Notes: generated by a model from the sequence alone, not told the origin. Counted from the stretch's first letter, positions 5,781-63,460 are shown. The stretch is 64,000 bases of DNA from Acidimicrobiia bacterium (GCA_038323195.1 JBBQGQ010000005.1:99217-163216), one strand, 5' to 3'. Translations and numbers: made by a program.

Positions 5781-5789
5781 CAGCCGCAG

Positions 5790-5825
5790 CCTACGCAGCC
5801 ACTAGTGCCTACGCAGCCACTAGTG
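5790..5825. repeat. perfect 18-bp tandem duplication (CCTACGCAGCCACTAGTG x2) spanning a stop codon
   Basis: Copies at 5790-5807 and 5808-5825 are identical. The second copy contains the last codon and TAG stop of the 5820..6554 gene (minus strand). Confidence 0.95.
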
Positions 5826-13600: not shown

Positions 13601-13649
13601 CCGCTGACGAGACCCCGCTGACGAGACCCCGCTGACGAGACCCCGCTGA
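13601..13649. repeat. 14-bp tandem repeat CCGCTGACGAGACC x3.5
   Basis: Three perfect copies (13601-13614, 13615-13628, 13629-13642) plus a 7-nt partial copy, in the divergent intergenic region upstream of the ferredoxin gene. Confidence 0.95.
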
Positions 13650-15952: not shown

Positions 15953-16028
15953 CCGCGCTCGGCCCGCGGCCGGCGCGCAGTGCGCGCCAGCCGCGCTCGG
16001 CCCGCGGCCGGCGCGCAGTGCGCGCCAG
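15953..16028. repeat. perfect 38-bp tandem duplication containing a GC-rich palindrome
   Basis: CCGCGCTCGGCCCGCGGCCGGCGCGCAGTGCGCGCCAG occurs at 15953-15990 and again at 15991-16028. Each copy carries the inverted repeat GGCGCGCA-G-TGCGCGCC. Confidence 0.95.
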
Positions 16029-22374: not shown

Positions 22375-23205
22375 ATGAACGACGTGCTGCAGTACGAGGG
22401 CAAGCGCGTGATCGTGACGGGCGCAGCTTCGGGGATGGGCGCCGCGACTGCGCAGATCCTCGTCGATCTCGGCGCCGAGGTGCACGCGATCGACATCAAG
22501 AAGCCCGAGGTGACGGGGCTGGCCAGCTTCAGTCAGTGCGATCTGCGCGATCCCGCACAGATCGACGAAACGATCGGGAAGATCGGCAAGATCGTGAACG
22601 CGCTCTTCAATTGCGCGGGTCTGCCGAACACGTTCCCGAACCTCGACGTGATGCTCGTCAACTTCTGCGGACTCCGCCAGGTGACCGAGTCGGTGATCCC
22701 GCTCATGATCGAGGGTTCGTCGATCGCGAGCATCGCGTCGACCGCGGGGATCGGTTGGATGCAGAACATGGAGCTTTTGTTCGGGCTCATGATGACTCCC
22801 GACTTCGCCGGGGCACGCGCGTGGTGCGAAGCGCACCCGAAGGAGCTCGCGAACGCGTACGGCCTGTCGAAGGAAGCGATCAACGCGTACACCGCGTTTC
22901 GTTCGTTCAACCTCGCCCAGGACGGGCTCCGCATCAACTGCGTCAACCCCGGCCCCACCGACACGCCGATGATGCCCGAGTTCGAGAAGGCCGTCGGCAA
23001 GAAGTACATGGACGACTTCCCGGTTCCCCTCGGCCGCCATGCCGTCGCGGAGGAGCAGGCTTGGCCCATGGTGTTCCTCAACAGCCCGCGCTCGTCGTTC
23101 GTCACGGGCTTGCAGTTCGACTGCGACGGCGGGTTCAAGGGCGGACTTTTCACCGGCCAGATCGACCCGACCGTGCTGATGCCCGAAGGTATGGGCGACG
23201 CATGA
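22375..23205 (+). CDS. SDR family oxidoreductase
   Basis: VIVTGAASGMGAATA Rossmann motif. 276 aa. Starts 3 nt after the ferredoxin stop, and its own stop overlaps the bioB start (ATGA). Confidence 0.85.
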   Translation: MNDVLQYEGKRVIVTGAASGMGAATAQILVDLGAEVHAIDIKKPEVTGLASFSQCDLRDPAQIDETIGKIGKIVNALFNCAGLPNTFPNLDVMLVNFCGLRQVTESVIPLMIEGSSIASIASTAGIGWMQNMELLFGLMMTPDFAGARAWCEAHPKELANAYGLSKEAINAYTAFRSFNLAQDGLRINCVNPGPTDTPMMPEFEKAVGKKYMDDFPVPLGRHAVAEEQAWPMVFLNSPRSSFVTGLQFDCDGGFKGGLFTGQIDPTVLMPEGMGDA

Positions 23206-30224: not shown

Positions 30225-30268
30225 GACTACCGATCTTGCAGCTCGTGACTACCGATCTTGCAGCTCGA
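30225..30268. repeat. 22-bp tandem duplication (21/22 identical) spanning a stop codon
   Basis: GACTACCGATCTTGCAGCTCGT occurs at 30225-30246 and again, with one change, at 30247-30268. The second copy holds the last codons and TAG of rnd (minus strand). Confidence 0.95.
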
Positions 30269-31466: not shown

Positions 31467-32375
31467 TCATCGGAGCTCGGACCGCACCGCCGCGAGTTGC
31501 TCGAACGACCGCAACACCGGCGCCTGGTCGTCGGCGAGGTGACGCACGATGACGTCGGTGCAACCCGACGCCTGCAGGCCCTCGAACGCGTCGGCCACTC
31601 GGCTCGGTCCGCCGACGACCACCGCGGACGGGTCGAAGCCGCGATACCCACCGGCGATGATCGGATCGGCGACTGCGGCCGCCTCTTCGTCGGTCGCGGC
31701 GACGTGCACGTCCCGGCGCACCGCGATGCGGTTCGGTGCACGGCCGTGCCGCTCACATGCTTCGCGGTAGCTCTGTACGAGCGCCCCGACCTCGGTCGGG
31801 GTCGCCTCGGGCCCGATCAGGAAGGCATCACCGAGTCGGGCGGCGCGATCGATCGCGGGCGGAGACGCCGCGCCGATCCAGACCTCCAGCGGTTCCGGCG
31901 GCACCGGAGCGATGTGCGCCCGGTCGATCTTCCATAGTCCGTCGAGGGCCGTCACCGCCTCACCTCGGCACAACGCCCGCACGATCTCGAGCGCGGCCTC
32001 GAAACGCCGGGCGCGCTCGCGCAACGAGGTGTCGAAGACGCGGAACTGCTCGTCGCCCGCTCCGACCGCGCACTGCAGGACGAAGGGCCCGCGAGCGATC
32101 GCGGCGAGCGTGCCGATCTGCTCCGCGAGCAGCACTGGATGCCACAACGGCAACAGGAACAGCGCGCCCGCAGGCCGGTCGTCCCACTCGGCGAGTAGCC
32201 GTCCGAGGATCGGGACGTTCTGGTAGTAGGGCACGGGGACGTTGTGGTGGTCGCCGACGAAGAGGCTGTCGAGGCCGGCGTCGGCCGCGGCTCGCGCCCG
32301 TTCGACCATCCACCGCGCCCCGACCCGGGCGTCCATGGGCGCATACCCGCTCCGCAACGACACGCCTACTCGCAT
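31467..32375 (-). CDS. LLM-class flavin/F420-dependent oxidoreductase
   Basis: 302 aa. MRVGVSLRSG...DSLFVGDHH... indicates a luciferase-like TIM barrel. Confidence 0.8.
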   Translation of the reverse strand: MRVGVSLRSGYAPMDARVGARWMVERARAAADAGLDSLFVGDHHNVPVPYYQNVPILGRLLAEWDDRPAGALFLLPLWHPVLLAEQIGTLAAIARGPFVLQCAVGAGDEQFRVFDTSLRERARRFEAALEIVRALCRGEAVTALDGLWKIDRAHIAPVPPEPLEVWIGAASPPAIDRAARLGDAFLIGPEATPTEVGALVQSYREACERHGRAPNRIAVRRDVHVAATDEEAAAVADPIIAGGYRGFDPSAVVVGGPSRVADAFEGLQASGCTDVIVRHLADDQAPVLRSFEQLAAVRSELR

Positions 32376-32545
32376 GGCTCCCTCGCTGCGGCAAACCCTT
32401 CGGCCTGGCTCCGCTGCGTCCGCACGGTTTTCATGGCTCCCTCGCTGCGGCGCGCCCTTCGGCGCGCCTCCGCTGCGTCCGCACGGTTTTCATGGCTTCC
32501 TCGCTGCGGCGCGCCCTTGGGCGCGCCTCCGCTGCGTCCGCACGG
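32373..32545. repeat. 59-bp tandem repeat x3 beginning at the start codon of the LLM gene
   Basis: Units at 32373-32431, 32432-32490 and 32491-32545 (the last lacks ~4 nt). Units 2 and 3 carry the hairpin GGCGCGCC-CTTC/CTTG-GGCGCGCC. On the minus strand each unit ends with AGGGAGCC-ATG. Confidence 0.95.
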
Positions 32546-51766: not shown

Positions 51767-53481
51767 GTGAGTCTGGAAGTGGCGGAGTCCCGAGCGCCCG
51801 CGAGGTGGGTATCCCGCCGAGCAGCGAGGGCGACAAAGCAAGCATCGTGGGTATCCCGCCGAGCAGCGAGGGCGACAAAGCAAGTATCGAAATTTACGAC
51901 ACGACGTTGCGGGATGGCTCGCAGCTCGAGGGGATCTCGCTGACCGTCGAGGACAAGCTGCGGATCGCGGAGCAACTCGACTGGCTCGGTGTGCACTACA
52001 TCGAAGCCGGTTGGCCGGGCGCGAACCCGAAGGACGACGAGCTGTTCCGGCGCGTGCCGAACGAGCTGAGGCTCGAGACCAGCACCCTCGTCGCGTTCGG
52101 GTCGACGCGTCGAGTCAAGGGCAAGGTCGACAGCGACGACACACTCCGCCACCTCGTCGAGGCGAATGTCGGGACCGTCTGCATCGTGGGCAAGTCTTGG
52201 GACTACCACGTCACCGAGGCACTGGGCACGACGCTCGACGAGGGTGTGGCGATGGTCGGCGATTCGGTCGAATTCCTGCGCGGCGCCGGGATGCAGGTGC
52301 TCTTCGACGCCGAGCACTTCTTCGACGGCTTCAAGCGCAATCCCGAGTTCTCGCTGCGCGTGCTCGAAGCCGCGGCGACGAACGGCGCGAGCCATCTCGT
52401 GCTCTGCGACACCAACGGCGGAGCGCTGCCACGCGAGGTCGAGCAGGCCGTGGCAGATGTCGTGCGTTACTTCGGTGCCGACGTCAAGATCGCGGTGCAT
52501 CTCCACGACGATGCCGGCACTGGAGTTGCGAACGCGCTCGCGGGGGTACTCGGGGGCGCCACACAGGTCCAGGGCACGATCAACGGTTACGGCGAGCGCA
52601 CGGGCAACTGCAATCTCACCACGATCATCCCGAATCTCACGCTCAAGATGGGCTACGAGACCATCCCGCTCGATCGCTTCGAGCGGCTCACTCCGGTTGC
52701 GCACCACATCGCCGAGCTTGTGAACATGCCCCTCAACCCGCAGGCCGCGTACGTGGGCCATTCCGCGTTCGCGCACAAGGCCGGGTTGCACACGAGCGCG
52801 ATCGCGAAGCGTCCCGACGCCTACGAGCACGTATCGCCCGAGGTCGTCGGGAACGGGACGCGGTTCGTGGTATCGGAGCTCGCGGGCAAGTCGACGCTCG
52901 GGCTCAAGGCCAAGGAGCTCGGCCTCGAGCTCGACGGACCGCAGCTGGCCGACGTGGTCGAGACGTTGAAGCGGCTCGAGCACGAGGGCTACCACTTCGA
53001 GGTTGCCGACGGCTCGTTGGAGTTGCTCATGCGCCGGGCAACGGGTTGGGAGCCCGGCTGGTTCCGAGTCGAGTCGTTCCGCGTGATCACCGACGACCTC
53101 GGCGGCGTCGACACCCTTACCGACAAGACCGGCGCGACCGTGATGACCGAAGCAACCGTCAAGGTCCACATTGGTGGTAGGCGAGTGGTGGCGACCGCCG
53201 AGGGCAACGGTCCGGTGAACGCGCTCGACACCGCGCTGCGAACCGCACTCGACGGCAATTTCCCCGCGCTCGAGCGAGTGCACCTGACCGACTACAAGGT
53301 GCGGGTGCTCGACACGAACAAGGGCACGGGCGCGGCGACTCGGGTGCTGATCGACTCCACCGACGGCAACGGCACGTGGACGACCATCGGCGTGAACGAG
53401 AACATCATCGAAGCCTCGTGGCAGGCGCTGCTCGACTCGATTCATTTCGGCCTGCTGCGCGCCGAGCTCGCCGGCGGCTGA
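51763..53481 (+). CDS. cimA: citramalate synthase-like LeuA paralogue
   Basis: ATG at 51763 in an ATGA overlap with the ilvE stop; alternative GTG starts lie at 51805 and 51847. IYDTTLRDGSQ, HLHDDAGTGVANALAGV and a C-terminal LeuA_dimer-type domain. From memory the layout resembles the TIGR00977 citramalate synthase class; the substrate is not proven. Confidence 0.8.
   Translation: MSESGSGGVPSAREVGIPPSSEGDKASIVGIPPSSEGDKASIEIYDTTLRDGSQLEGISLTVEDKLRIAEQLDWLGVHYIEAGWPGANPKDDELFRRVPNELRLETSTLVAFGSTRRVKGKVDSDDTLRHLVEANVGTVCIVGKSWDYHVTEALGTTLDEGVAMVGDSVEFLRGAGMQVLFDAEHFFDGFKRNPEFSLRVLEAAATNGASHLVLCDTNGGALPREVEQAVADVVRYFGADVKIAVHLHDDAGTGVANALAGVLGGATQVQGTINGYGERTGNCNLTTIIPNLTLKMGYETIPLDRFERLTPVAHHIAELVNMPLNPQAAYVGHSAFAHKAGLHTSAIAKRPDAYEHVSPEVVGNGTRFVVSELAGKSTLGLKAKELGLELDGPQLADVVETLKRLEHEGYHFEVADGSLELLMRRATGWEPGWFRVESFRVITDDLGGVDTLTDKTGATVMTEATVKVHIGGRRVVATAEGNGPVNALDTALRTALDGNFPALERVHLTDYKVRVLDTNKGTGAATRVLIDSTDGNGTWTTIGVNENIIEASWQALLDSIHFGLLRAELAGG
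51805..51888. repeat. 42-bp in-frame tandem duplication (41/42) in the 5' end of the cimA-like gene
   Basis: Copies at 51805-51846 and 51847-51888, each beginning with GTG. They encode VGIPPSSEGDKASI twice, directly before the conserved IYDTTLRDG core. Confidence 0.95.
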
Positions 53482-53493
53482 GGAGCGCCGGCC

Positions 53494-53523
53494 GGCGCGG
53501 GTCGGCGCGGGTCGGCGCGGGTC
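53494..53523. repeat. 10-bp tandem repeat GGCGCGGGTC x3
   Basis: Three perfect copies starting 13 nt after the cimA-like stop. Confidence 0.9.
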
Positions 53524-53554
53524 GGCCCGGCCGGGTCGAAATGCGATCCGAGTA

Positions 53555-59365: not shown

Positions 59366-59552
59366 GAGCGTGGTATCGCGTGTGCACGCGTCATCGACAG
59401 GCGATCCGCATGCGCGCTTCCGCGCAGCCAACAATCTTGACACGAGTCGCGCAACGAGTGGTGGATGCTACGCGCGTTCCGTGAGAAGTGCTTGACGTGG
59501 CCGTGTGAATACGTTCTCATAACACGAACACACGCGGTGCGTGGAGGTTTAC

Positions 59553-59831
59553 GTGAACAAGGGCGAGCTCGTCGACGCGATCGCGAACGACGCGAACATC
59601 AGCAAGACGGATGCCGAGAGCGCGCTCAACGCATTCATCAACTCGGTGCAGTCGTCGATCTCGTCGGGCGAGAAGGTGACGCTCCCGGGCTTCGGGACGT
59701 TCTCGCCTGCGCTGCGCAAGGCGCGCACAGGTATGGATCCGCGCACGCGTGAGCCGGTGCAGATCCCCGAGCGCAAGAGCGCCAAGTTCTCCGTGGGCTC
59801 GAAGTTCAAGGCCCAGGTACAAGGATCCTGA
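59553..59831 (+). CDS. hup: HU family DNA-binding protein (core domain only)
   Basis: GTG at 59553 preceded by GGAGG (5-nt spacer). VNKGELVDAIA...LPGFGTF...RTGMDPRTREPVQIPE is a canonical HU fold. It ends at a TGA after 92 aa. Confidence 0.9.
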   Translation: MNKGELVDAIANDANISKTDAESALNAFINSVQSSISSGEKVTLPGFGTFSPALRKARTGMDPRTREPVQIPERKSAKFSVGSKFKAQVQGS

Positions 59832-59916: not shown

Positions 59917-60270
59917 GTGGTGACCGTGCCTCCGGCTAAAAAGGCAACGAAGAGAAGGGCTGCCAAGAAGGCTCCGGCCAAGCGCAAGGCCGTGAAGAAG
60001 GCGCCCGCGAAGCGGAAAGCAGCTAAGAAGCGGACCGCGAAGAGAAAAGCACCGGCCAAGCGCAAGGCGGCGAAGAAGACCGTCAAGCGCAAGGCGGCGA
60101 AGAAGACCGTCAAGCGCAAGGCGGCCAAGAAGCGCAAGGCTCCGGCCAAGCGCAAGGCAGCCAAGAAGCGTAAGGCTCCGGCGAAGAAGCGTCGCAAAGC
60201 CGCGAAGAAGGCGCCGGCCAAGCGTGCCGTGCGTCGCACAACGCGCAAGCGCACAACGAAGAAGAAATAG
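59917..60270 (+). CDS. Lys/Ala/Arg-rich histone-H1-like basic protein (PAKRKAAKK repeats)
   Basis: GTG preceded by AGGAAAGG. 117 aa, almost entirely K/A/R/P/T repeats, like the C-terminal tails of mycobacterial HupB or Streptomyces HupS. The DNA has internal 27-36-bp repeats. Confidence 0.75.
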   Translation: MVTVPPAKKATKRRAAKKAPAKRKAVKKAPAKRKAAKKRTAKRKAPAKRKAAKKTVKRKAAKKTVKRKAAKKRKAPAKRKAAKKRKAPAKKRRKAAKKAPAKRAVRRTTRKRTTKKK

Positions 60271-60344: not shown

Positions 60345-61070
60345 TCAGAGGTTGTCGATGCGGGCGAACGACTCGGCCGCGCGCAGCCCGGCCCGGAGGG
60401 CAGCGGCGCGGGTCTCGGCGTGGACCTTCTCCGCGAACGCGGCGCGCTCCTCGTCGGGGCGCTCGTCGATCGCCATCGTGGAGCGCCACTGACTCCGATG
60501 CGCGAGCAACGCCTCGATCTTGCGATCGACGTAACCGTCGACGTTCTCGACGTGATCGACCCGGCCCGGCTCGAAGCAGAGCAAGGTCGACGGCCGGTGC
60601 GGTGCCACTCCTTGCTCGGGGAAGAAATGCGGGTCGCGCGCGGCGACGATCCCGGAAGTGACGAGCAACCCCGCGTGGTGATGGTCGGGATGGATCCGGT
60701 ACGGGTGCCACGGGTCGTGTCCGAGCACGACGTCGGGGCGAGCCTGACGGATCACGCGGCAGACGGCGGCGCGCGGTGCCAGCGTGCTGTCGAGCTCACC
60801 GTCGACGAAGCGCAGGAACACGACGTCGACGGCTCCGAGGATGGCGACGGCGTCGCGTTGCTCGTCTTCGCGCTTCGCGATGAGCGCCGCGAGGTCGGCG
60901 GCACCGTCCCAAGTGCCCTTGGAGCCGTCGGTGCAGACGCAGAGGGTCACCTGCGTGCCGGCGGCCGCCCACTTCGCGAGCGTCGCACCACAGCCGAACT
61001 CGATGTCGTCGGCGTGGGCACCGATTGCCAGCGCGCGCCGCGGGATCGGGAGGTTGACGGCGATCGTCAT
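60345..61070 (-). CDS. PIG-L family deacetylase (LmbE/MshB-like)
   Basis: 241 aa. AIGAHADDIEFGCGATLAKW and the downstream HPDHHH motif. Confidence 0.85.
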   Translation of the reverse strand: MTIAVNLPIPRRALAIGAHADDIEFGCGATLAKWAAAGTQVTLCVCTDGSKGTWDGAADLAALIAKREDEQRDAVAILGAVDVVFLRFVDGELDSTLAPRAAVCRVIRQARPDVVLGHDPWHPYRIHPDHHHAGLLVTSGIVAARDPHFFPEQGVAPHRPSTLLCFEPGRVDHVENVDGYVDRKIEALLAHRSQWRSTMAIDERPDEERAAFAEKVHAETRAAALRAGLRAAESFARIDNL

Positions 61071-61137
61071 GGCGCAGATGTCATGGCGCGGATGTCGTGG
61101 GCGCGGATGTCTTGGGCGCGATTGTCATGGCGCGGGC
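61066..61137. repeat. 14-15-bp tandem repeat x5 spanning a start codon and the upstream stop codon
   Basis: Plus-strand units are GTCATGGCGCAGAT, GTCATGGCGCGGAT, GTCGTGGGCGCGGAT, GTCTTGGGCGCGATT and GTCATGGCGCGGGC. On the minus strand units 1, 2 and 5 read ..GCGCC-ATGA-C. Confidence 0.9.
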
Positions 61138-61727
61138 GTACGCCGGAGCGTTTCGAGCGCGTCGAGGTCGGCGGGGGTGTCGACGTCGAACCCCAACGCC
61201 GCGTCTCGCACTATCCGAACCGTGAGCGATCGGCGCCGGGCTTCGTCGGCATGACGAGCGGCGGAACGAGGCCCGTACGCGAAGGTGAAGGGCTCGGCCG
61301 TCGGAAGCGAAAGCACCGGAGTGCCGTCGTCGCGATGGTCCGGAACGATGACCGCGACCAGTGCGGAGCCGTCGGCGACGACGGCGTCGAGCGAGTGGGC
61401 GAGCGGGAGATCGGCGTGGACGACGGCATAGCGCGTCAGCGAGCGGCCGATCGCCCAGGTTCTTCCGGCCGCCGCCGCGGCGTCGAGCGAGCCGGGGTCG
61501 TCGAGCACGTCGAACTCGCGGTCTCGGGCCCAGGCAACGACCTCGGGCGCGCTCGAGACGACCACCACCGGACGCGTGCCGGCGGCATTGGCGACGCATT
61601 CCGCCATCGATCGCGCGAGCGTCTCGCGTTCGTGCTCGGAGAGTGTCTCGGCGAGCCGCGCCTTGCCCAAGGTGAACGACCGGAGCGGGACGACGATCCC
61701 CGCATCGTCTTGGGATCCACTCGGCAT
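61125..61727 (-). CDS. cofC: 2-phospho-L-lactate guanylyltransferase (F420 biosynthesis, CofC/FbiD)
   Basis: 200 aa. GIVVPLRSFTLGKARL...VVHADLPL... is the typical CofC layout. Confidence 0.75.
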   Translation of the reverse strand: MPSGSQDDAGIVVPLRSFTLGKARLAETLSEHERETLARSMAECVANAAGTRPVVVVSSAPEVVAWARDREFDVLDDPGSLDAAAAAGRTWAIGRSLTRYAVVHADLPLAHSLDAVVADGSALVAVIVPDHRDDGTPVLSLPTAEPFTFAYGPRSAARHADEARRRSLTVRIVRDAALGFDVDTPADLDALETLRRTPAP

Positions 61728-61736
61728 TCGCTGCGT

Positions 61737-62453
61737 ATGCTACCGACCGTGGACGCGGTGTATCCCGCCGCGAAGGCGGTGTTCTGGCCCTGGTTGCGCT
61801 TCGGCTTGCGTTGGACGATCGAAGGCGAGGCGAACATCCCGGCGCACGGCCCGGCGATCCTCGCGAGCAATCACATCTCGTATCTCGACCCGCTCACGCT
61901 GGCCTGGGTGGCGAACCAGCACAAGCGGCGCATCCGCTTCCTGGCCAAGGCCGAGCTCTTCCGGAACCCGGCGCTCGGTGTGTTGTTGCGAGCCGCGCAC
62001 CAGATTCCCGTGTACCGCGGAACGGCCGATTCTTCGGGCGCGCTCTCGGCCGCGGTCTCGGCGTTGCGGAACGGCGAGTGCGTCGCCGTGTTCCCCGAGG
62101 GCACGATCTCCGAGGACCTCGAGCCCATGCGGGGCAAGTCGGGTACGGCTCGCCTTGCCCAAGAATCCGGAGTGCCGGTCGTCCCGGTTGGCCTCTGGGG
62201 AACCCATCGGTTGATGACGAAGGGCCGCAAGCCCCACTTCTCGTGGGGGATCGCGCAGGTCGCGGTCGTGGGCGATCCGGTGCACATAACCGAAGGTGAG
62301 CGTCCGAGAGACGCGACGCTGCGCGTCATGGACGCCATCACGGCGTGCGTCGCCCGGGCGCGCGAGATCTACCCGCAGCGGCCCGAGGCGGGCAGCGACG
62401 CATGGTGGTGGCGCGATCCGGGGACGGCGACCGCGCACCGGAGACCGGCATGA
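61737..62453 (+). CDS. plsC: 1-acyl-sn-glycerol-3-phosphate acyltransferase
   Basis: ATG at 61737 inside ORF 60420..62453. HX4D motif (SNHISYLD) and FPEGT motif. Confidence 0.9.
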   Translation: MLPTVDAVYPAAKAVFWPWLRFGLRWTIEGEANIPAHGPAILASNHISYLDPLTLAWVANQHKRRIRFLAKAELFRNPALGVLLRAAHQIPVYRGTADSSGALSAAVSALRNGECVAVFPEGTISEDLEPMRGKSGTARLAQESGVPVVPVGLWGTHRLMTKGRKPHFSWGIAQVAVVGDPVHITEGERPRDATLRVMDAITACVARAREIYPQRPEAGSDAWWWRDPGTATAHRRPA

Positions 62454-63460
62454 CGCGCATCGCGGTCGTCGGGGCGGGATCGTGGGGCACGGCCGTGGCT
62501 GCGATCGCCGCCGGCAACGTCGCGACCACGTTGTGGGCGCGTCGGCCGGAGCTCGCGGCGCAGATCCGCGACGCGCACGAGAACCCCGCGTATCTGCCCG
62601 GCATCCGGTTGCCCAGTCGCCTCCACGCCACCGATTCGCTCGAAGAGGCTTGCACCGGCGCCGATGTGCTCGTGTTGGGCCTGCCGTCACACGGACTGCG
62701 GGCGGTGCTCGGTGAAGCACGTTCGTTCATCGGGCCGCGGGTCCCGGTTGTGAGTCTCGCCAAAGGCATCGAGCAGGGAACGCTCGCGCGTATGACCGAG
62801 GTCGCCTGTGAGGTCCTCGCCGGCCACGAAGCTGCGTGCGTCGGCGTCCTCACCGGCCCAAACCTCGCGCGCGAGGTCGCAGCCGGCCAACCCACCGCGT
62901 CGGTGGTCGCGATGGCCGACCCGGCGGTCGCCGAGGAGATGCAGCAACTGTTCTTCGCGCCGACGTTACGCGTCTATACCAATCCCGACGTCGTCGGCTG
63001 CGAGATGGCGGGCGCACTCAAGAACGTGCTCGCGATCGGTGCCGGTATCGCCGACGGCCTGGGCTATGGCGACAACACGAAGGCCGCGCTGATGACACGT
63101 GGTCTGGCCGAGCTGGCGCGCCTGGGCGCCACCATGGGCGGCGATCCGCTGACGTTCGCCGGGCTGGCGGGGATGGGCGATCTGATCGCGACGTGCAGCA
63201 GCCCGCAGAGCCGCAACCGCCACGTCGGAGTCGAGCTCGGCAAAGGTCGTGCCCTCGACGAGATCATCAACGAGATGAACATGGTTGCCGAAGGCGTGAA
63301 GACGACGGCCGCGGTCCTGGAGCTCGCGGCGCGGCACAAGGTCGAGATGCCGCTCGCATCCTTCGTCCAACGGGTGCTCTACGAAGGGGCGCGTCCTGCC
63401 GATCTCGTTCCCGAGCTGATGCTGCGCAAGGCGAAACCCGAGCTTCACGGGATGCGGTGA
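62450..63460 (+). CDS. gpsA: NAD(P)H-dependent glycerol-3-phosphate dehydrogenase
   Basis: ATG in an ATGA overlap with the plsC stop. IAVVGAGSWGTA, GALKNVLAIGAG and GDLIATC motifs. Confidence 0.95.
   Translation: MTRIAVVGAGSWGTAVAAIAAGNVATTLWARRPELAAQIRDAHENPAYLPGIRLPSRLHATDSLEEACTGADVLVLGLPSHGLRAVLGEARSFIGPRVPVVSLAKGIEQGTLARMTEVACEVLAGHEAACVGVLTGPNLAREVAAGQPTASVVAMADPAVAEEMQQLFFAPTLRVYTNPDVVGCEMAGALKNVLAIGAGIADGLGYGDNTKAALMTRGLAELARLGATMGGDPLTFAGLAGMGDLIATCSSPQSRNRHVGVELGKGRALDEIINEMNMVAEGVKTTAAVLELAARHKVEMPLASFVQRVLYEGARPADLVPELMLRKAKPELHGMR

Follow-up and report, generated by a model that had tools for sequence, protein, structure and literature searches.

The window, i.e., the whole 64-kb stretch of DNA that we analysed, carries on its minus strand a cofC gene (2-phospho-L-lactate guanylyltransferase) followed by a gene of the PIG-L/LmbE deacetylase family, with a short tandem repeat array lying between the two (Table 1). 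Both gene identities had been proposed in an initial annotation made from the sequence alone, and both hold: the CofC product scored 123.5 bits against TIGR03552 (cutoff 105) and is also matched by PF01983, and the deacetylase is matched by PF02585 at 96 bits while its scores for the BshB1, MshB and Mca equivalogs are under the respective cutoffs. Given that the CofC profile alignment extends to a few residues short of the called stop, and that the N-terminus of the deacetylase (MT.xV(D/N)LP.P.R) is kept in homologues of 241 aa with identities as low as 68%, we consider both gene ends to be correctly placed. The same 200-aa CofC product was also called in independent assemblies.

The gene order is a common one in Acidimicrobiia: among the matches listed, cofC lay directly upstream of the deacetylase gene in 152 out of 162 loci, and most of the other loci were contigs too short for gene order to be judged. 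To our knowledge, no functional link connects F420 biosynthesis with a PIG-L deacetylase; the tight coupling of the two genes across Acidimicrobiia (usually by a 4-nt overlap) suggests that there is one. On the far side of cofC, its ATG at 61727 (minus strand) diverges from the ATG of an acyltransferase gene at 61737 (plus strand), with 9 nt between the two start codons, and an identical 9-nt gap separates the divergent cofC and acyltransferase starts in the related locus L167. Such a gap leaves no space for 5' UTRs or Shine-Dalgarno (SD) sequences at either gene, which suggests leaderless transcripts with promoters located within the neighbouring gene.

The array occupies positions 61066-61135 of the minus strand, where TRF reported a period of ~15, 4.9 copies, 84% matches and a score of 87. 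Read in order on that strand, the region is CCCGCGCCATGACAAT CGCGCCCAAGACATC CGCGCCCACGACATC CGCGCCATGACATCT GCGCCATGACGATCGCC, with units starting at 61133, 61119, 61104, 61089 and 61075 (each GCGCC...). The initial annotation had described an ATGA overlap amplified to five units between cofC and the deacetylase gene, and the TRF result and the unit positions confirm this description. Its placement of the cofC TGA (61127-61125), the deacetylase ATG (61070-61068), the 54-nt spacer and the five-codon ORF MTSAP (61084..61067) is accurate in every detail, and two inner units (U2 and U3) have indeed lost the ATG. Its list of other junctions in the window using the same motif stands in part: those at 23202-23205 and 62450-62453 are ATGA overlaps, that at 1853-1857 is a TGATG/GTGA junction, and a range given as 62450-63453 is a typographical error. 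Three-frame translation further revealed an ORF that the annotation had not mentioned, namely the 15 codons that begin at ATG 61128 (mini-ORF 1). This ORF completes an unbroken chain of three ATGA overlaps leading from cofC to the deacetylase gene, which in the window share one reading frame.

Table 1 Features of the cofC/deacetylase junction in the window.
Feature	Position	Strand	Description
cofC	61125..61727	(-)	200 aa; TIGR03552 and PF01983
Unit U1	61133-61120	(-)	14 nt, ATGA
ATGA overlap 1	61125-61128	(-)	cofC stop and mini-ORF 1 start
Mini-ORF 1	61081-61128	(-)	15 codons and stop, MTIAPKTSAPTTSAP; spans U1-U4
Unit U2	61119-61105	(-)	15 nt, CAAGA
Unit U3	61104-61090	(-)	15 nt, CACGA
Unit U4	61089-61076	(-)	14 nt, ATGA
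ATGA overlap 2	61081-61084	(-)	mini-ORF 1 stop (TGA 61083-61081) and mini-ORF 2 start
Mini-ORF 2	61067-61084	(-)	5 codons and stop, MTSAP
Unit U5	61075-61062	(-)	ATGA; runs into the deacetylase gene and forms its start
ATGA overlap 3	61067-61070	(-)	mini-ORF 2 stop (TGA 61069-61067) and deacetylase start
PIG-L/LmbE-family deacetylase gene	60345..61070	(-)	241 aa; PF02585

We assessed whether such an array could be a chance product of the local base composition. All three exact copies of the 10-mer GCGCCATGAC in 64 kb lie within the array, and matches with one mismatch outside the array were at or below the shuffle expectation for the 64-kb window. When the window was shuffled 100 times with its dinucleotide composition preserved, a TRF score of at least 87 was reached in 2 shuffles, and arrays with at least four copies and a period of at least 10 arose at a mean of 0.05 per shuffle. 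A chance repeat is thus ruled out by the shuffle controls together with the confinement of GCGCCATGAC to the array.

Copy number in close relatives

The closest relatives of the locus were gathered through a 30-member cluster (at least 90% identity to the window's deacetylase) and exact-protein look-ups, and all of the alleles described here are metagenome consensus sequences. In relatives with at most 88% protein identity (L166, L165, L004, L083, L005, L084, L085 and L006) the junction consists of a single 4-nt NTGA overlap, and the same is true of L164, in which the flanking DNA closely matches that of the window. Two of these loci, L164 (ACGTCTGCGCCATGACGATCGCC) and L004 (CCGCGCCATGACCATC), carry in effect a single copy of the unit, both with GCGCCATGAC. 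The L164 deacetylase gene and the L165 cofC gene appear frameshifted or uncalled in long contigs, plausibly owing to sequencing indels, and these two loci served for junction sequence only.

Within the clade of at least 97% nucleotide identity to the window (measured over the deacetylase gene), copy number ranged over 1, 2, at least 3, 5 and 6 units. Specifically, one unit (spacer of -4 nt) was found in L167-170 (97% identity), two (+10) in L178 (98.1%), at least three in L176 (97.8%), where the contig ends in the array, five (+54) in the window, L001 and L002 (100%), and six (+66) in L177 (97.9%), where all units are 14 nt long with an intact ATGA. Further out, two units (+10) were found in L179 and L173-175 (about 91.7%), three (+24) in L171 and L172 (about 91.6%), and at least three in L163 (91.1%), where again the contig ends in the array; in the 92% clade, GTGA replaces ATGA in some units. 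Spacer length follows 14(n-1)-4 for n units, with 2 nt more in the window owing to its two 15-nt units. The contig ends within the array in L163 and L176 are only suggestive of copy-number heterogeneity inside a population.

Copy number shifts far faster than point substitutions accumulate: the 723-nt deacetylase genes of L177 (six units) and L178 (two units) have 99.9% nucleotide identity and yield one and the same protein. Different units have been amplified in different strains (four identical copies of ACAATCGCGCC in L177, and ACATCTGCGCC in L176), so that there must have been several slippage events. The unit itself is made up of the cofC tail (..T-P/S-A-P-stop) and the deacetylase head (M-T-I..), so that the mini-ORFs read M-T-(I/S/P)-A-P; the five-codon ORF MTSAP of the window recurs in L176, L177 and L178. 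The initial annotation had expected some relatives to show a single ATGA at the same junction, as well as variation in copy number, and the relatives' assemblies contain both (the former in, e.g., L164, L004 and L167-170). Its proposal that an ancestral, single ATGA-coupled junction expanded by slippage is well supported, with a lone NTGA being present in the relatives. With head-to-tail copies and whole-unit differences between close relatives, the array has the properties of a variable-number tandem repeat (VNTR), and comparison of these sequences gives good support to the view that it was seeded by the ATGA junction through slippage.

Duplications are also present within cofC itself. In L178 (~100-140) its 3' end contains a 9-nt in-frame duplication (GACGCTCGA twice, encoding LETLETL), and in L166 (~1400-1500) it contains repeated CTCGACGCG and CCGACGCCCACA (encoding TPTPTPTP). 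The final ~60 nt of cofC look like a slippage hotspot that extends past the junction.

Chained overlaps across lineages

A period of 14 nt equals 2 modulo 3, and the TGA of each unit consequently lies in the frame set by the ATG of the unit before it, meaning that a relay of overlapping ORFs arises automatically. In L177, for example, five successive 5-codon ORFs are linked by ATGA. We therefore rejected the relay in 14-nt alleles as a sign of selection, as it is an arithmetic product of the period. The window differs from this pattern in U2 and U3, each of which has lost the T common to ATG and TGA and has gained one base, a frame-neutral change that brings the unit to 15 nt; as these two units lack ATGA, three units are fused into one 15-codon ORF.

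To address the question of selection, we carried out a cross-lineage survey of all 145 usable cofC/deacetylase junctions among the matches listed. A start codon that overlaps the cofC stop and is in frame with the deacetylase (i.e., direct coupling, often with an N-terminal extension) was found in 84 out of 145 junctions, and no start overlapped the cofC stop in 49. A relay, defined as one or two bridging ORFs leading from the cofC stop to exactly the deacetylase start, was found in nine junctions (L001 and L002, both identical to the window, L003, L046, L119, L031, L125, L157 and L058), the class of L001 and L002 being a two-hop relay. In three further junctions (L019, L059 and L048) a bridging ORF did not end on a start, and in none of the 145 did an overlapping start run out of frame into the deacetylase gene. 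Thus, when the overlapping start was out of frame, the ORF ended exactly on the deacetylase start in 8 out of 11 distinct cases.

By comparison, shuffled spacers yielded a relay at a mean rate of 5.6%, and the rate was 0.1% when the spacer of the window itself was shuffled. The relay enrichment corresponds to a Poisson-binomial P of ~3e-9, a value based on a simple shuffle null and on lineages that are not all independent (L119, L031 and L125 are probably related to one another). By this measure, bridging-ORF relays are far commoner than chance, and the enrichment is large. The 49 junctions without an overlapping start show that the two genes can do without coupling. Nonetheless, the comparison of junctions across lineages, in which the chain of stops on starts is preserved, provides evidence that coupling at the cofC/deacetylase junction may be under selection.

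The L058 junction (2290-2371) contains a perfect 30-nt repeat in 2.7 copies that begins at the cofC ATGA and forms a 33-codon ORF, the TGA of which overlaps the ATG of an N-extended deacetylase; this is a clear case of independent junction amplification. A generic repeat screen of ~0.8 Mb of DNA also returned amplified junctions at other coupled pairs. In L102 (1874-1911), a perfect 15-nt repeat in 2.5 copies lies at a GTGA junction between cofC and the gene upstream of it, with the first GTG in the cofC frame. Three units of 13-14 nt are found in L006 (1153-1195, reverse strand) at the GTGA where the acyltransferase gene meets gpsA, and here too the first GTG stays in frame; in the window, the ATGA at 62450-62453 joins these two genes. 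Each of the L058, L102 and L006 amplifications keeps either the chain or the frame intact. In addition, the spacer of L157 looks, from its sequence, like a degenerate junction repeat of the same kind. Repeats in L041 and L087 (periods of 21 and 30 nt) were set aside, as they appear to be in-frame coding repeats when judged by period alone.

Proposed translation of the chain and alternative readings

We searched for SD-like motifs (GGAG, GAGG, AGGA, GGGA and AAGG) and found none within 25 nt upstream of the cofC, mini-ORF or deacetylase starts; SD sequences are in use elsewhere in the window, e.g., GGGAGGAACCCATG at a ferredoxin-like gene (~13715). The junction thus presents three successive 4-nt stop/start overlaps with no ribosome-binding signal at the downstream start. 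In E. coli reporters carrying native gene pairs, reinitiation was reduced by 40-80% at a distance of +14 nt and to almost zero at +38 nt (PMC10666635), and in published reporter work with native gene pairs in Haloferax a gap of 22-23 nt abolished termination-reinitiation. Given this distance-dependence, an ATG at 54 nt would scarcely be within reach of a ribosome that ends cofC. Furthermore, coupling requires no more of an upstream ORF than its last 15 nt (PMC10666635).

In our reading, the array arose when the 4-nt ATGA overlap at the cofC/deacetylase junction was duplicated by strand slippage, and each 14-nt unit is a self-contained 5-codon ORF with ATGA at both ends. We propose the following for translation. 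The deacetylase gene, having no SD sequence, would be translated by ribosomes finishing cofC, which would pass from cofC to the 15-codon ORF, on to the 5-codon ORF and finally to the deacetylase start. They would do so by three local reinitiations at -4 nt, never having to cross 54 nt. Coupling would in this way be kept across the spacer, probably with some attenuation at each extra hop, and the expected output would be lower the more hops there are: the ancestral state has 1, the window 3 and L177 6. As an explanation of the whole, a slippage-born VNTR combined with such a serial termination-reinitiation relay is the reading we favour, with moderate confidence. Its structural and comparative parts (i.e., the layout of the array, its origin from a single overlap, the variation in copy number and the excess of relays over chance) are shown by the sequences, and we infer from them that the relay is in use and that copy number alters deacetylase output. 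The suggestion that copy number tunes the coupling of the two genes is a plausible one, in keeping with the way reinitiation depends on distance in published work.

An extension of this proposal, which we consider improbable and put forward as speculation, is that NTGA overlaps might act as self-seeding repeat generators. Amplified units would then form an evolvable translational rheostat, with each mini-ORF hop lowering output geometrically and only chain-preserving expansions being selected. This would be general in coupled operons of Acidimicrobiia and other high-GC Actinomycetota, and could be a possible route to elements resembling the mycobacterial MIRUs discussed below.

The array can be explained in several other ways. 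One explanation is an assembly or sequencing artefact, to which we assign virtually no probability. Tandem repeats are liable to mis-assembly, and two related contigs (L163 and L176) end within the array. However, at 70 nt the array is by our estimate shorter than a typical short read, the lengths of the alleles vary by exact multiples of the unit, and the array is the same in three independent assemblies. Specifically, in addition to the window, it is found base for base, with the same proteins and with no collapse of the repeat, in the Logan assemblies of two different runs (SRR19962015 and SRR24807096), on which ground we rejected an artefact; L001 is 99.73% identical to the window over 1459 nt, and L002 100% over 1140 nt. 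Alternatively, readthrough of the cofC TGA could produce a CofC-deacetylase fusion with the linker QSRPRHPRPRHPRHDICA, as the two genes of the window share a frame and the spacer between them is free of stops, and the 66-nt spacer of L177 is also a multiple of 3. By contrast, spacers of -4, 10 and 24 nt place the genes in other frames in close relatives, no known or visible readthrough signal is present, and a fusion is therefore extremely unlikely. A further reading, also very unlikely, takes the direct repeats as sites where a regulator would bind DNA or RNA, or as an internal promoter of the deacetylase gene. Direct repeats spaced by 14-15 nt could in principle bind a multimeric regulator, and the MIRU spacer of senX3-regX3, which shows promoter activity (PMC4213456), provides a precedent. 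Against this, the spacer contains no sigma-70-like promoter and no terminator-like site (there is no TA dinucleotide in it, and hence no TANNNT -10 element), the unit is found nowhere else in 64 kb, and in close relatives a single copy embedded in coding sequence suffices. We likewise rejected a structured RNA element, since the spacer folds no better than its shuffles (z = 0.02).

Finally, slippage may have been neutral. Under this explanation, units would multiply via local microhomology and intergenic copies would be tolerated, with the deacetylase gene being translated independently of cofC and the mini-ORFs and with no phenotype. Several observations fit such a scenario: gains and losses of units far outpace point substitutions, the 14-nt period makes the relay automatic, the cofC 3' end is prone to duplication (as in the L178 and L166 sequences described above), the window contains other perfect short tandem duplications, and a third or so of related junctions (49/145) have no overlapping start. 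On the other hand, neither an SD sequence nor a promoter-like element is available for independent initiation of the deacetylase, the NTGA overlap is strongly conserved, relays exceed chance where the frame is broken, and in the 145 junctions no overlapping start enters the deacetylase gene out of frame. We regard neutral slippage as less likely than the relay but as a serious rival to it.

Known systems and other repeats in the window

The closest known analogue of the array is the mycobacterial interspersed repetitive unit (MIRU, or MIRU-VNTR) found in the Mycobacterium tuberculosis complex (Supply et al. 1997; see the descriptions in PMC3184786, PMC3635867 and PMC4213456). According to these descriptions, MIRUs too are tandem and copy-number-variable, lie in the intercistronic spacer of an operon and are transcribed within a polycistron, and the small ORFs of their units overlap the stop and the start of the flanking genes (PMC3184786); moreover, both occur in high-GC Actinomycetota. 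The same descriptions set the array apart from the MIRU family, outside which it falls. As described there, MIRU units measure 40-100 bp and are dispersed at ~40-50 loci, and their target duplications and imperfect inverted repeats suggest transposition. Here, by contrast, the units measure 14-15 nt, the array is the sole copy within the 64-kb window, it contains no inverted repeats, the host belongs to Acidimicrobiia, and the unit is composed of the local cofC tail and deacetylase head. Given this local origin of the unit, homology to MIRUs is unlikely.

The array also resembles the ATGA/TGATG coupling known from other gene pairs (Huber et al. 2019, PMC6728339; PMC10666635), in that every link is a canonical -4 overlap with no SD sequence and a plain -4 overlap is the ancestral state in the relatives studied here. 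In the known cases one overlap joins two genes, whereas here two non-conserved mini-ORFs (of 15 and 5 codons) are interposed, and as many as five in L177. With the simple-sequence-repeat contingency loci of phase variation, the array shares slipped-strand change that is faster than point mutation and that may shift gene output. However, it is not part of a coding frame or of promoter spacing, and a change in unit number is no on/off switch but would at most grade downstream translation. Indeed, the lengths of CofC and of the deacetylase are constant across alleles; since the array is intercistronic and leaves the proteins unchanged save for the last residues of CofC, it does not amount to a phase-variation switch. 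It differs, too, from the TAACTGA heptamers of Beggiatoaceae, Cyanobacteria and Bacteroidetes (PMC4679880), which are genome-wide (169 sets) and have a unit with no start codon and no link to an upstream stop, whereas the array is confined to one locus and derives from the junction.

The array is thus an intercistronic VNTR with coupled mini-ORFs in a minimal form, and not a new molecular system. It offers a natural allelic series of 1, 2, 3, 5 and 6 chained overlaps in the same gene pair, suited to measuring the efficiency of each termination-reinitiation step and to finding out if ribosomes can be handed on by very short ORFs. The array also reveals a simple, local origin for intercistronic repeats with mini-ORFs overlapping their flanks, a trait so far tied to mycobacterial MIRUs. 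In practical terms, the locus is a strain-resolving VNTR marker for an uncultured lineage of Acidimicrobiia.

Other repeats were present in the window, where short tandem duplications were well over the shuffle expectation. The strongest tandem repeat, at 32373-32545, comprises 2.9 copies of 59 nt (92% matches, TRF score 290) and includes GC-rich self-complementary segments (GCGGCGCGCCCTTCGGCGCGCC). Perfect or near-perfect duplications lie at 15953-16028, 51805-51889, 30225-30267, 5789-5825 and 53485-53530 (38 nt x 2, 42 x 2, 22 x 2, 18 x 2.1 and 10 x 4.6, respectively) and suggest a genome broadly prone to recent slippage. At 13601-13649, a perfect 14-nt repeat in 3.5 copies (CCGCTGACGAGACC) was found ~65 nt upstream of the small ferredoxin-like gene, the ATG of which (~13715) has GGGAGGAA just before it; this repeat was rejected as a junction amplification because it is not at a gene junction.

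Downstream of the deacetylase gene, on the plus strand, an HU-domain gene (59541-59831; 96 aa, PF00216) is closed by a stop and is followed, after 85 nt, by a separate Lys/Ala-rich ORF (59917-60270; 117 aa) with no Pfam match. In mycobacteria, a basic tail is fused to HU. The Lys/Ala-rich ORF of the window contains in-frame tandem repeats (TRF periods of 18-36 at 59965-60191), and with relatives' versions measuring 115, 116, 119 and 147 aa, it looks to be length-variable.
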